This document shows, one piece after another, positions 39 to 1,653 of a DNA stretch of 11,786 nt (position 1 is its first letter; each line of letters starts with the position of its first letter). Where the stretch lies: NCBI GenBank assembly GCA_038063375.1, contig JBBTVG010000026.1, forward strand, positions 1 to 11,786, given 5' to 3'. Made by a program: the position numbers and the translations under genes. The notes below the pieces were generated by a model that made no database searches, was not told where the DNA came from, and saw nothing but the letters and a program-made list of their open reading frames with translations. This DNA comes from Patescibacteria group bacterium. Lineage in GTDB: Bacteria; Patescibacteriota; Minisyncoccia; Phycocordibacterales; JANLHH01.

Positions 39-1196
39 CTACTTCTCTTCTTTTTTGTCCGCCTCCGCGTAGGAGAGCGTCATTTTTTGGTCTTTTGGTT
101 CAAAGAAGGTGATCTTGAATTTGTATGTCTTTCCCAGTTCAAGCGTTTCGCGGAGTTTCTGTTCCGTACTGAATTCAGATACATGCACCAATCCGGCGAC
201 TCCTTCTTCAATGCTTACCAGCGCTCCGTGCTTGTTGAATTTAATGACGACGCCGTCCACAATGTCACCCTTTTTGTATCTGTCTTTTGCTTCACCCCAC
301 GGATTTTCTTTGAGTGCTTTAATAGACAGAGAGATCTTGTCGTCCTTGATCTCAATAATTTTTGCTTTTACTTTTTCGCGGACTTTAAAGAGGGCTTTAG
401 GGTCCTCCACCAAACCCCAATCAATTTCCGAGATATGCACCAATCCTTCCAGTCCCTCTTCTACTTTGAGGAACACGCCGAAATCAACAATGCCGGTGAT
501 CTCTCCCGTTACTTCATCGCCCACATGGTATTTGCTGACGATTTTTGCCTTGTCGTTTTCCACCATACCTCTCTCGGAAAAGATCAATTTTCCCTCCTTT
601 GGTGATGCGTTGATGATCTGAACAGAGAGCTTTGTGCCGATAAACTTTTTCAGCTCACCCAGTATCTGGTCTTTGTTCCCGTCTTCAACTCGCGGATAAT
701 GCTCTTGGGAGAGTTGAGAAGCGGGAAGGAACCCTTGAATACCTTGCCATTCAAGAATGAGTCCTCCTTTGTTCGCGTCCTTAACGGGAAGCTCCAGAAG
801 AGTTTTCTTCTTTATCGCATCTTCCGCTTCACCCCAGGTGAGCGCTTGGCGCGCTTCTTTGAGAGAGAGCTCGGTGTAGCCATTTTCGTTTTCCGCTTCC
901 ACCACCTTGGCCGCAATAATGTCCCCAATGTTCGCACGTCTGATGACGTCGCGCGCATTCATGTACTCTCGGCCATAGATAATGCCGGTGCCAAACGGCG
1001 CGAGATCAACATAAACCGATCCGCGCCCAAAGCCGATGATCGCGCCTTCAACAAGGTCCCCTTCTTCCGCTGGCACGCGTTCTTCACTCAAAAGCATGTT
1101 TGCCATGCCAGTATCAATAGTGGCGAGTTCACTCGTTTCGTCCGCGTCTTTCTCGAGGATTTCCAGGTCGTTTTTTGTTACGTCAGTCGTTGTCAT
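39..1196 (-). CDS. rpsA: 30S ribosomal protein S1, short ~385 aa form with four S1 domains. The long ORF 39..1634 is an upstream over-extension; the true start is the ATG at 1196-1194 (MTTTDVTKNDLEILEK...).
   Basis: The translation shows repeated S1/OB-fold units (GDIVDGVVIKFNKHGALVSIEEGVAGLVHVSEF; GDEVTGEITGIVDFGVFLKVEEGLEGLVHISEI; GGLILEWQGIQGFLPASQL; GAIIGFGRGSVYVDLAPFGTGIIYGREY). The 146 aa upstream of this Met are low complexity and run through two terminator hairpins. Confidence 0.85.
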   Translation of the reverse strand: MTTTDVTKNDLEILEKDADETSELATIDTGMANMLLSEERVPAEEGDLVEGAIIGFGRGSVYVDLAPFGTGIIYGREYMNARDVIRRANIGDIIAAKVVEAENENGYTELSLKEARQALTWGEAEDAIKKKTLLELPVKDANKGGLILEWQGIQGFLPASQLSQEHYPRVEDGNKDQILGELKKFIGTKLSVQIINASPKEGKLIFSERGMVENDKAKIVSKYHVGDEVTGEITGIVDFGVFLKVEEGLEGLVHISEIDWGLVEDPKALFKVREKVKAKIIEIKDDKISLSIKALKENPWGEAKDRYKKGDIVDGVVIKFNKHGALVSIEEGVAGLVHVSEFSTEQKLRETLELGKTYKFKITFFEPKDQKMTLSYAEADKKEEK

Positions 1197-1210
1197 AATT
1201 TTAAAAGAAA

Positions 1211-1260
1211 AAACCGCTTCTAACCCCGCAATAGAACGGGGTGAAGCGGAGTTTTTTATT
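1211..1260. terminator. Bidirectional intrinsic-terminator-like hairpin lying 1-17 nt upstream of the rpsA ATG on the minus strand. It may act as an attenuator or translational operator rather than a full stop.
   Basis: Two-tier stem: CCGCTTC (1214-1220) pairs with GAAGCGG (1243-1249) and CCCCG (1224-1228) pairs with CGGGG (1237-1241), with an 8-nt loop. On the plus strand the hairpin is followed by a T6 run (1252-1257, AGTTTTTTATT); on the minus strand by TTTTTTCTTTT. Confidence 0.5.
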
Positions 1261-1342
1261 CTCCGCAAGGGGTCTGTATCGTACCTGCCGTTGTCCGGAT
1301 CGTTACAGGGTTGACCTTGCTTTCTCCGCTGATAATAGGCAC

Positions 1343-1370
1343 AGCATACAGTATTCATTAAAAAAGTCAA
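1343..1370 (-). promoter_or_regulatory. Putative sigma70-type promoter for rpsA: -35 TTGACT (1370..1365), a 16-nt spacer, -10 TATGCT (1348..1343), read on the minus strand.
   Basis: Hexamers and spacing were read directly. The site sits between the csrA terminator and the rpsA leader hairpins and would give a ~140-nt structured leader. Confidence 0.3.
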
Positions 1371-1405
1371 AAACAAAAGGGAGTTCAGATGAACCCCCCT
1401 TTTTG
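1360..1405. terminator. Intrinsic terminator for csrA on the minus strand; the hairpin is near-palindromic, so it is bidirectional.
   Basis: Hairpin GGGAGTTC-agat-GAACCCCC (1379-1399). The single imperfection is a G.U wobble on the minus-strand RNA. The minus-strand transcript is followed by UUUUGUUUUUGACUUUUUU; the plus strand is followed by T5 (1400-1405). Confidence 0.55.
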
Positions 1406-1458
1406 CCTTGCGGCTTTGTGCTTTTTTGTTGTGACGCGTTCGACTTGAGGCAAAGGCT

Positions 1459-1653
1459 TTATGCGAGCGCGCGGCCGTTTTGTCCCGCACGCTCCCTCTG
1501 GATGCGCGCATAGATTTCTTCACGGTGGACAGGGACGTCCTTGGGAGCGTTAACCCCGATGCGCACTTGGTTGCCTTTGACACCGAGCACCGTGACCGTA
1601 ACGTTATCACCGATGTTGAGAGTTTCCCCAACACGCCTCGTCAAGATAAGCAT
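1459..1653 (-). CDS. csrA: Carbon storage regulator CsrA/RsmA, 64 aa, a global post-transcriptional RNA-binding regulator. The true start is the ATG at 1653-1651 ([48 protein letters not shown]...).
   Basis: The sequence closely matches the canonical CsrA signature ([10 protein letters not shown]..., [11 protein letters not shown](V)NAPK..VHREEIY). An AAGAGG Shine-Dalgarno lies 11 nt upstream of the start on the minus strand. Confidence 0.85.

Follow-up and report, generated by a model that had tools for sequence, protein, structure and literature searches.

A conserved, folded RNA lies upstream of the gene for ribosomal protein S1 in Paceibacteria, and its helices are backed by covariation. 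We found it in the 11,786 nucleotides from a Patescibacteria group bacterium that were analysed here (contig JBBTVG010000026.1; 'the window' denotes this whole stretch), where a leader of ~140 nt runs from about position 1336 to 1197 on the minus strand. P1, the helix that closes the fold, is mutually exclusive with an intrinsic terminator in front of the S1 start codon, and the fold is linked exclusively to the S1 gene. Our preferred interpretation, held with slightly better than even confidence, is that 1336-1197 is the leader of the S1 mRNA and belongs to a conserved family of attenuators in Paceibacteria that probably sense free S1, the presumed effector.

Patescibacteria are largely uncultivated and their gene regulation is almost uncharted, with regulators being read from sequence; the element described here would be a lineage-wide cis-regulatory RNA. 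Its target, S1, is a central translation factor for which autoregulatory RNAs have been verified in Gammaproteobacteria and, to date, in no other group. Since S1 is mostly seen as a non-specific RNA binder, a defined natural target would be informative. With about 80 nt of compact and well-covarying structure, the element is a candidate for such a target. Its ON-type layout poses a clear mechanistic question. The annotation of genomes would profit as well, since many pipelines for metagenome-assembled genomes (MAGs) extend the S1 reading frame through the leader.

The S1 gene and its genomic context

The features of the region are collected in Table 1. In comparisons of the S1 protein with NCBIfam, the top models were those of 30S ribosomal protein S1, with scores under the equivalog cut-offs (222 versus 368 bits for NF005208). 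Thousands of homologues of this protein are present in Patescibacteria, part of which have been named S1 by JGI, and three to four domains are typical of bS1 proteins in the candidate phyla radiation (PMC9297842). Related contigs assign the window to Patescibacteria, class Paceibacteria/Parcubacteria; its nearest relative (locus L001) encodes an S1 protein that is 90% identical. Mechanically, the S1 reading frame can be extended through the leader (39-1634). We regard this N-terminal extension as a product of chance because L001 carries an in-frame TAA two codons before the ATG.

Table 1. Features of the S1 leader and its surroundings in the window
Feature	Positions	Strand	Remarks
S1 gene (four-domain bS1 homologue, 385 aa; the regulated gene)	39-1196	minus	Pfam S1 E = 3e-41
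Spacer: U-tract UUUUUUCUUUU (1213-1203) and AAAAUU	1197-1213	minus	entire untranslated spacer; no Shine-Dalgarno sequence
Intrinsic terminator hairpin	1214-1249	minus	5' arm 1249-1236, loop 1235-1230, 3' arm 1229-1214; dG -23.8 kcal/mol
P1 3' strand CUCCGC	1246-1251	minus	last four bases CCGC (1249-1246) open the terminator 5' arm
Linker, variable in length and sequence	1252-1264	minus	about 1 to 14 nt across members
Junction ACC, then P2 3' strand CCUUGC	1265-1273	minus	family consensus AGA(A/C)C, including the end of P3
P3 hairpin, variable in length (stem 1308-1301 / 1281-1274)	1274-1308	minus	single-sequence folding predicts it too
Internal loop UCAACC (family consensus (A/G)UAAC-C)	1309-1314	minus	UAAC near-invariant across alignments A5, A6 and A8
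P2 5' strand GCAAGG	1315-1320	minus	pairs with 1270-1265; covaries
P1 5' strand GCGGAG (antiterminator strand)	1324-1329	minus	pairs with 1251-1246
Single-stranded 5' segment AUUAUCA (family consensus AUUAnnAG)	1330-1336	minus	at or near the RNA 5' end; alignments A3 and A6
Promoter-like site TTGACT-16-TATGCT	1343-1370	minus	one of only two sigma-70-like sites in a scan of 900-2200
csrA intrinsic terminator	1375-1402	minus	sole terminator-like site from a generic scan of 900-2200
csrA (upstream neighbour)	1459-1653	minus	Pfam CsrA E = 3e-26; NCBIfam CsrA equivalog cut-off exceeded

An earlier note on this DNA had proposed the promoter-like site listed in Table 1 together with a leader of about 140 nt, and both are present as it described them. 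Transcription from this site is predicted to start at about 1336. The site is identical in L001 and near-identical in L081, and a strict sigma-70-like match was found in 29 of 87 members of the family, ending a median of 6 nt before the motif. The intrinsic terminator of csrA stands between csrA and this promoter, and for this reason obligate co-transcription of csrA and S1 is unlikely. A csrA gene precedes S1 also in L001, L082 and L083; the remaining 79 genome loci have no csrA at this position.

The same note had described the S1 start as lacking a Shine-Dalgarno sequence; indeed no purine-rich Shine-Dalgarno precedes the ATG. Within the window this is nothing exceptional: several other open reading frames have none, while csrA, orf245 and the SPFH gene do. 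In a published survey, the anti-Shine-Dalgarno motif was missing in about half of Parcubacteria (PMC9297842). The leader contains no AUG ahead of the S1 start, and attenuation by a leader peptide was rejected on this ground. A scan for tRNA and tmRNA genes found none.

A covarying three-helix domain

The 156-nt region from 1345 to 1190 folds more stably than shuffled sequences, with a z-score of -3.0. The conserved part of the fold, which was absent from the earlier note, consists of three helices, P1, P2 and P3. It spans 1336-1246 and is closed by pairing of the distal GCGGAG (1329-1324) with CUCCGC (1251-1246). Several single-stranded bases are near-invariant, namely AUUA close to the 5' end, UAAC-C ahead of P3 and AGA(A/C)C behind it. 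In the 5' segment, alignments A3 and A6 show little or no variation at A4, U5, U6, A7, A10 and G11. UAAC is replaced by UCAAC in the window and in L001. P1 itself occurs in variants such as GCGGAG/CUCCGC, GCGGAU/AUCCGC, ACAAGC/GCUUGU and GAAAAA/UUUUUC.

The window, L001 and the three loci L081-L083 share one plan. Its 5' half consists of AUUAUCAG, GCGGAG, a covarying helix, (U)AAC-C, a hairpin and AGA(C)C, and its 3' half of the return strand of the helix, a variable linker, CUCCGC, and a short hairpin with a U-tract followed by the ATG. In L001 the promoter is kept and the first ~75 nt of the leader are almost unchanged.

Covariation was evaluated on 65 distinct sequences for 19 modelled pairs. 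Of 1170 cells, 90% form standard pairs, as compared to 26-49% when the partners are slid by one to three columns. Double changes, in which both sides differ, occur in 17 of the 19 pairs. The covariation score of 0.437, against 0.155 in shuffles, was reached by none of 500 shuffles. Helix P1 is 97% paired across the 65 sequences and shows double changes in five of its six pairs; helix P3 has compensatory changes in all eight of its modelled pairs. The alignments behind these counts had been fitted to the model and are thereby biased toward the structure. This concern is reduced by the control with slid partners and by independent predictions: RNAalifold on a MAFFT alignment and minimum-free-energy folding of the nascent RNA of the window both return the same helices. 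A search for additional covariation of the kind expected from a pseudoknot singled out the modelled pairs alone, and a correlation between columns 18 and 107 tracks lineage.

The terminator and its overlap with P1

The earlier note had described a terminator-like hairpin followed by the U-tract UUUUUUCUUUU, AAAAUU and the ATG. This arrangement is present, with a predicted energy of -23.8 kcal/mol for the hairpin, a U-tract of the form U6CU4 and an ATG (1196-1194) directly after AAAAUU. From the end of the hairpin to the ATG there are 17 nt. The generic terminator scan had missed the hairpin because its pattern allows neither the two-nucleotide bulge nor the 14-bp stem. Relative to L001, the hairpin differs by compensatory changes. 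We also considered that the terminator might serve a gene on the plus strand, and rejected this: no credible plus-strand gene ends there, and the plus-strand reading frames over S1 are mechanical.

In 75 of 88 distinct members, a hairpin with a T-run starts within the P1 3' strand, and in most members four to six of the six bases of this strand lie inside the terminator stem. The 3' arm of the terminator repeats the P1 5' strand, for example in AUCCGC-loop-GCGGAU-UUUUU. Changes in the P1 3' strand are matched in the terminator arm, as in GUCCGC...GCGGAC of L103. Since the P1 3' strand is the start of the terminator 5' arm, P1 is an antiterminator. From the T-run to the first ATG the median distance is 16 nt across members, which leaves no room for a separate S1 promoter, so S1 must be made by read-through. 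The other 13 members are divergent and have no terminator; in these, the start codon adjoins the P1 3' strand or overlaps with it. Translation might be blocked in this group when P1 is closed, and the sign of regulation is not necessarily uniform across the family.

Distribution and linkage to S1

Sequence searches were of little use for finding relatives of the leader: BLASTN against 80 S1 loci returned L001 only, and a strict regular expression returned the four close relatives only. Covariance models were therefore needed. A model built from the window and four close relatives (R1) matched 16 further S1 loci among 83 related loci of Paceibacteria. The first rebuild (R2) matched 38 of the 83, plus two weak off-site matches at E > 2, and the second (R3) matched 44, which with the window makes 45 matches. 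All 45 share the strand of S1 and lie no more than about 260 nt upstream of it, in the position of a 5' untranslated region before a single, putative ribosomal-protein gene. The element of the window scored E-values of about 1e-7 to 1e-23 against the covariance models, bearing in mind that the E-values of these models are rough and that the collections searched are large, not exhaustive. About 39 of the 83 S1 loci are unmatched by R3, and at least 10 of these carry a second motif ('class B'). With filters off, R3 gave only weak matches to class B (E >= 1.8), so that homology of the two motif classes is unproven.

The linkage to S1 was also assessed without reference to the gene, by scanning metagenome contigs with a DNA pattern made from the motif alone. 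This yielded 51 sites, 44 of which have an S1 reading frame directly downstream on the same strand. The remainder are five sites too near a contig edge, one chance match that is rejected by the model (L093) and one orphan (L089). Thus S1 follows directly in 44 of the 46 sites with enough flanking sequence. The orphan carries the complete motif and terminator without S1. Its sequence parts from that of the near-identical L124 and L129 right at the S1 ATG, a break that suggests rearrangement or chimeric assembly.

The leader might instead be a separate small RNA, ~125-135 nt long, that has a promoter and a terminator to itself and acts in trans or as a protein sponge, S1 then being expressed by leaky read-through. 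The promoter-like site and the very strong terminator of the window would suit such an RNA, as would the orphan site with motif and terminator but no S1; in addition, csrA lies upstream here and the leader of the window holds three GGA triplets. We give this reading a very small chance. Of the 46 gene-blind sites, 44 keep the same place immediately before S1, the ATG lies a median of only 16 nt past the start of the T-run, and 13 members have no terminator at all. Adjacency to csrA is confined to four loci, a single GGA survives in L001, and the break of the orphan precisely at the S1 ATG points to rearrangement or chimeric assembly.

A more specific version, in which the RNA is a CsrA sponge resembling CsrB or RsmY, was rejected. 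Three GGA triplets in ~140 nt are roughly what is expected by chance, the GGA kept in L001 is the one in the P1 stem, and most members have no csrA neighbour.

Energetics and alternative structures

When the RNA of the window has been transcribed to 1238, it is predicted to fold as P1-P2-P3 with -26.1 kcal/mol. In the complete leader the terminator state is the most stable with -43.5 kcal/mol, followed by -40.1 kcal/mol for a state containing a proximal hairpin and -39.5 kcal/mol for the P1 state. Across the 75 members with a terminator, the terminator state is ahead by a median of 2.4 kcal/mol; it is the more stable state in 58 members and the less stable one in 11, with 6 ties. The element therefore has the components of an attenuator, that is, a covarying domain, an intrinsic terminator before the start codon and mutually exclusive pairing of P1 and terminator.

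The proximal hairpin, GCGGAG(1266-1261)-AAUAAAAAA-CUCCGC(1251-1246), had been put forward in the earlier note as the structure that alternates with the terminator, and would then act as the antiterminator. It exists in the window, with -8.3 kcal/mol in isolation, it has CUCCGC in common with the terminator, and in the full leader its energy is as good as that of the P1 state (-40.1 and -39.5 kcal/mol). The idea of an attenuator-like geometry also holds in so far as the 5' arm of the terminator has an alternative pairing; the conserved partner, however, is the distal strand 1329-1324 and not the proximal 1266-1261. The proximal GCGGAG is made up of the linker and the GC at 1266-1265, and duplicates the P1 5' strand; of 88 distinct leaders, only that of the window has such a duplicate. 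L001 carries GCGAUC at this position in spite of its 90% identical S1. Comparison of upstream regions thus finds compensatory changes in P1-P2-P3 and in the terminator, whereas the proximal hairpin is confined to the window. Folding does return alternative structures, as had been anticipated, but because the proximal hairpin overlaps P2 by two bases, its state in the nascent RNA is less stable than the conserved fold by 4.9 kcal/mol (-21.2 versus -26.1 kcal/mol). A switch built on the proximal hairpin is scarcely probable, and we consider this hairpin to be at most a lineage-specific extra.

It is also conceivable that the element does not switch at all. It could act constitutively, for example as a stabiliser or insulator at the 5' end whose leaky terminator keeps read-through at a constant low level, or as a structured landing pad for translation of S1 without a Shine-Dalgarno sequence. 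The U-rich spacer with no Shine-Dalgarno and the position of the fold at the start codon in some relatives would fit such a role, and E. coli rpsA needs a folded leader for efficient initiation without a Shine-Dalgarno sequence (PMC10931766). The overlap of P1 and terminator, kept in 75 of 88 members with near-balanced energies, is hard to explain without alternation between the two, and a fixed attenuator needs no conserved three-helix domain with invariant loop bases. We therefore regard constitutive action as improbable.

A proposed mechanism and its presumed effector

In the attenuation mechanism that we prefer, transcription would start near 1336 and the nascent RNA would fold into the stacked P1-P2-P3 domain. 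As long as the domain is closed, RNA polymerase would read through into the S1 gene. With P1 opened or not formed at all, the terminator would arise instead and a transcript of ~125-135 nt would be released. The effector would be free S1 itself, in a form of autogenous control. Being an RNA unwinder that binds single strands, S1 could capture the A/U-rich 5' tail and the P1 5' strand as both emerge from the polymerase. When S1 is in excess of what the ribosomes need, this capture might tip the near-isoenergetic balance toward the terminator. The U-rich spacer with no Shine-Dalgarno probably also renders translation dependent on S1.

S1 seems the most likely effector because the motif is seen only before the S1 gene and because S1 of E. 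coli represses its own synthesis; the assignment thus draws on gene context and on analogy. For a motif restricted to one ribosomal-protein gene, that protein is conventionally assigned as the ligand (PMC7247131). In E. coli, S1 represses its own structured mRNA, which has no Shine-Dalgarno, via A/U-rich single strands (PMC10931766; PMC3616713), and single-strand binding and unwinding are known activities of S1 (PMC7038950; PMC3858243).

The layout of the element is of the ON type, since the conserved fold is the antiterminator, and simple repression through binding of S1 to the fold does not fit it. If S1 stabilised the fold, positive feedback would result; negative autoregulation needs S1 to destabilise P1. 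Such destabilisation is plausible as a model. The conserved bases of the internal loops look like a pocket for a specific ligand or protein, which counts against S1 as the effector; S1 has no known requirement for such a pocket. The NCBIfam scores of the protein, which stay under the S1 equivalog cut-offs, also weigh against the proposed mechanism.

These points lead to a different reading, in which the leader is an ON-type riboswitch or another sensor. A small molecule, an ion or a macromolecule other than S1, such as the S1-free 30S subunit, would stabilise P1 and thereby turn on S1 synthesis. P1 as antiterminator corresponds to the classic layout of an ON riboswitch. The terminator is the default in 58 of 75 members, with a margin of about 2.4 kcal/mol that a ligand could surmount. 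High conservation of the internal-loop bases is consistent with this reading, too, as is the use of the same core with two platforms, a terminator or abutment on the start codon. On the other hand, a metabolite riboswitch usually governs a number of gene families that are connected with its ligand, whereas this motif was found only upstream of S1 (44 of 46 informative gene-blind sites), a gene without an obvious metabolite partner, and it has no match to known aptamer families. On balance, we think that such a sensor is unlikely. Distinctly unlikely, in our estimation, is the particular form in which a specific sensor of S1 shortage (for example of S1-free 30S subunits) or of a small molecule drives antitermination and, in relatives, initiation independent of a Shine-Dalgarno sequence. 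Were this form to be true, the element would be the first riboswitch-like or IRES-like element specific to bacteria of the candidate phyla, and control of the ribosomal protein would be positive instead of repressive.

Comparison with known systems

No match to Rfam 15 was obtained for the whole window at gathering thresholds. Permissive searches (E <= 10 on 1100-1500 and E <= 1 on 10 related loci) gave only sub-threshold chance matches; among these, matches to Trp and Phe leaders were dismissed because they rest on the terminator and the T-run. We found no account of this leader in the literature, a search whose limits mean that it is no proof of novelty. An S1 leader outside Gammaproteobacteria and Cyanobacteria was not found in PMC7247131, PMC5737381, PMC11109978 or PMC11665869, and large motif surveys list no leader of S1 or from Parcubacteria. 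In the papers searched, S1 leaders are described only for Gammaproteobacteria, along with a separate candidate motif for Cyanobacteria (PMC3616713).

The operator of E. coli rpsA consists of three successive hairpins with GGA-containing loops and A/U-rich linkers, and it spans the region of the start codon (PMC3616713). Control there is translational and depends on competition between free and 30S-bound S1 (Boni et al., as reviewed in PMC3616713 and PMC10931766). The leader in the window resembles this operator in being structured and without a Shine-Dalgarno, in its A/U-rich single strands, in its restriction to one gene and in the presumed matching of S1 to ribosomes. Unlike the operator, it forms one nested P1-P2-P3 stack instead of three hairpins, its conserved bases are different, and control in Paceibacteria would be exerted by transcription attenuation instead of at translation. 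No similarity of sequence or structure to the E. coli operator was detected, and three successive hairpins are not found here. The likeness to E. coli rpsA to which the earlier note had pointed is therefore a functional analogy at most, between unrelated structures and with termination instead of translation initiation as the control point. With the putative cyanobacterial motif upstream of rpsA (PMC3616713), the element has in common that it is a lineage-specific candidate to which S1 is assigned by gene context only; that motif comes from another phylum, and the window and 10 related loci matched no Rfam family of any kind.

The element has the make-up of a terminator/antiterminator leader, and probably of a ribosomal-protein leader. 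In ON-type riboswitches such as adenine pbuE, ZTP and fluoride, the P1 3' strand is common to the 5' arm of the terminator. The leader described here resembles them in this sharing of P1 and terminator, in its near-isoenergetic states and in having the terminator as default. It differs from them in being linked to a single gene for an RNA-binding protein and not to a metabolic regulon, and it has no similarity to aptamers in Rfam. In the L20 and L10 leaders of Firmicutes, binding of the protein stabilises a structure that excludes the antiterminator and so favours the terminator. With these attenuation leaders the element shares its location in the 5' leader of a (here putative) ribosomal-protein gene, a terminator with a competing pairing, and restriction to one lineage (for the class, see PMC7247131); in contrast to them, its conserved structure is itself the antiterminator.

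Leaders without a terminator

In divergent members of the window's class that lack a terminator, the 3′ strand of P1, the antiterminator helix, abuts or overlaps the S1 start codon. This placement suggests that the expression platform of these members would be translational, and the sign of control is possibly opposite to that of the proposed switch in the window, where closed P1 would allow read-through into S1.

A second conserved motif, class B, was found upstream of S1 in Paceibacteria other than those that carry the window's class. UUAUUA stands at its 5′ end; after it come the first strand of a covarying helix of 9 bp, UUAUCCCC, a hairpin whose loop YNGGCAAMCAYU is conserved, GGACC and the return strand of the helix. 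About 10 nt (CUCAAAAAU) separate this return strand from the start codon, which is AUG or UUG. Class B carries no terminator. Both classes share an AUUA tail and a UA(A/U)CC...GRACC core; a search of class B with R3, the final covariance model of the window's class, gave no significant match.

Positions of the features in the window and in related loci
Feature	Locus	Position	Strand
Divergent members without terminator	L013, L017, L018, L030, L034, L036, L050, L064, L078	motif end 0-10 nt before S1 ATG	
Class B	L014, L022, L026, L031, L032, L035, L037, L039, L053, L060	~90 nt upstream of S1 start	
Class B, further loci	L027, L044, L056		
Whole motif with terminator	L089	505-620	
Spacer variant	L082	2345-2500	
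S1 frame without stop upstream of ATG	window	39-1634	minus
Terminator hairpin with plus-strand T-run	window	1205-1262	plus
csrA	window	1459-1653	minus
Correlated bases (A6 columns 18 and 107)	window	1324 and about 1272	minus
16S rRNA-like segments	window	1309-1314 and 1271-1276	minus

Variants and sequence context of the terminator-bearing leader

The S1 ORF is missing downstream of the L089 motif. The L089 sequence agrees with that of L124 and L129 up to the point at which their S1 gene opens with ATG, and diverges beyond it. Possible explanations for this copy are a rearrangement, a chimeric assembly or a motif that stands on its own. In L082, the leader terminator and the S1 ATG lie about 155 nt apart; the intervening sequence holds a second hairpin with the same arms (CUCCGC-ACAGU-GCGGAG), which may be a duplicated platform.

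The window terminator looks bidirectional, judged from the T-run that also follows the hairpin on the plus strand (GAAGCGGAGTTTTTTATT). This arrangement accounts for the weak plus-strand match to the Rfam family Trp_leader, and no credible plus-strand gene ends at this site.

On the minus strand, no stop codon interrupts the S1 frame in the 146 codons that precede the ATG, across the leader and into csrA, so that gene callers can over-extend S1; P0001, for example, is a partial call of 403 aa. An N-terminal extension of S1 through the leader was rejected: L001, the closest relative, has an in-frame TAA two codons upstream of its S1 ATG, and the open frame in the window is therefore attributed to chance.

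Only in a small lineage of four loci (the window, L001, L082 and L083) does csrA lie directly upstream of the S1 leader. A GGA within the 5′ strand of P1 (AGCGGAG; AGCAGGAU in others) is similar to a CsrA site, and CsrA bound at this putative site would block the antiterminator.

In the leader alignment A6, two positions vary together: the last nucleotide of the P1 5′ strand, which is U or G, and the A/C position of the AGA(A/C)C junction. The combination is U-A in 47 sequences and G-C in 7. This correlation could reflect a tertiary contact or only a lineage signal.

The 3′ region of E. coli 16S rRNA around helix 45 reads GGUAACC-GUAGG-GGAACC. The conserved leader segments UAACC ... G(A/G)AACC resemble it in linear sequence only. 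Since their secondary-structure context differs from that of the helix 45 region, the likeness is probably a coincidence.
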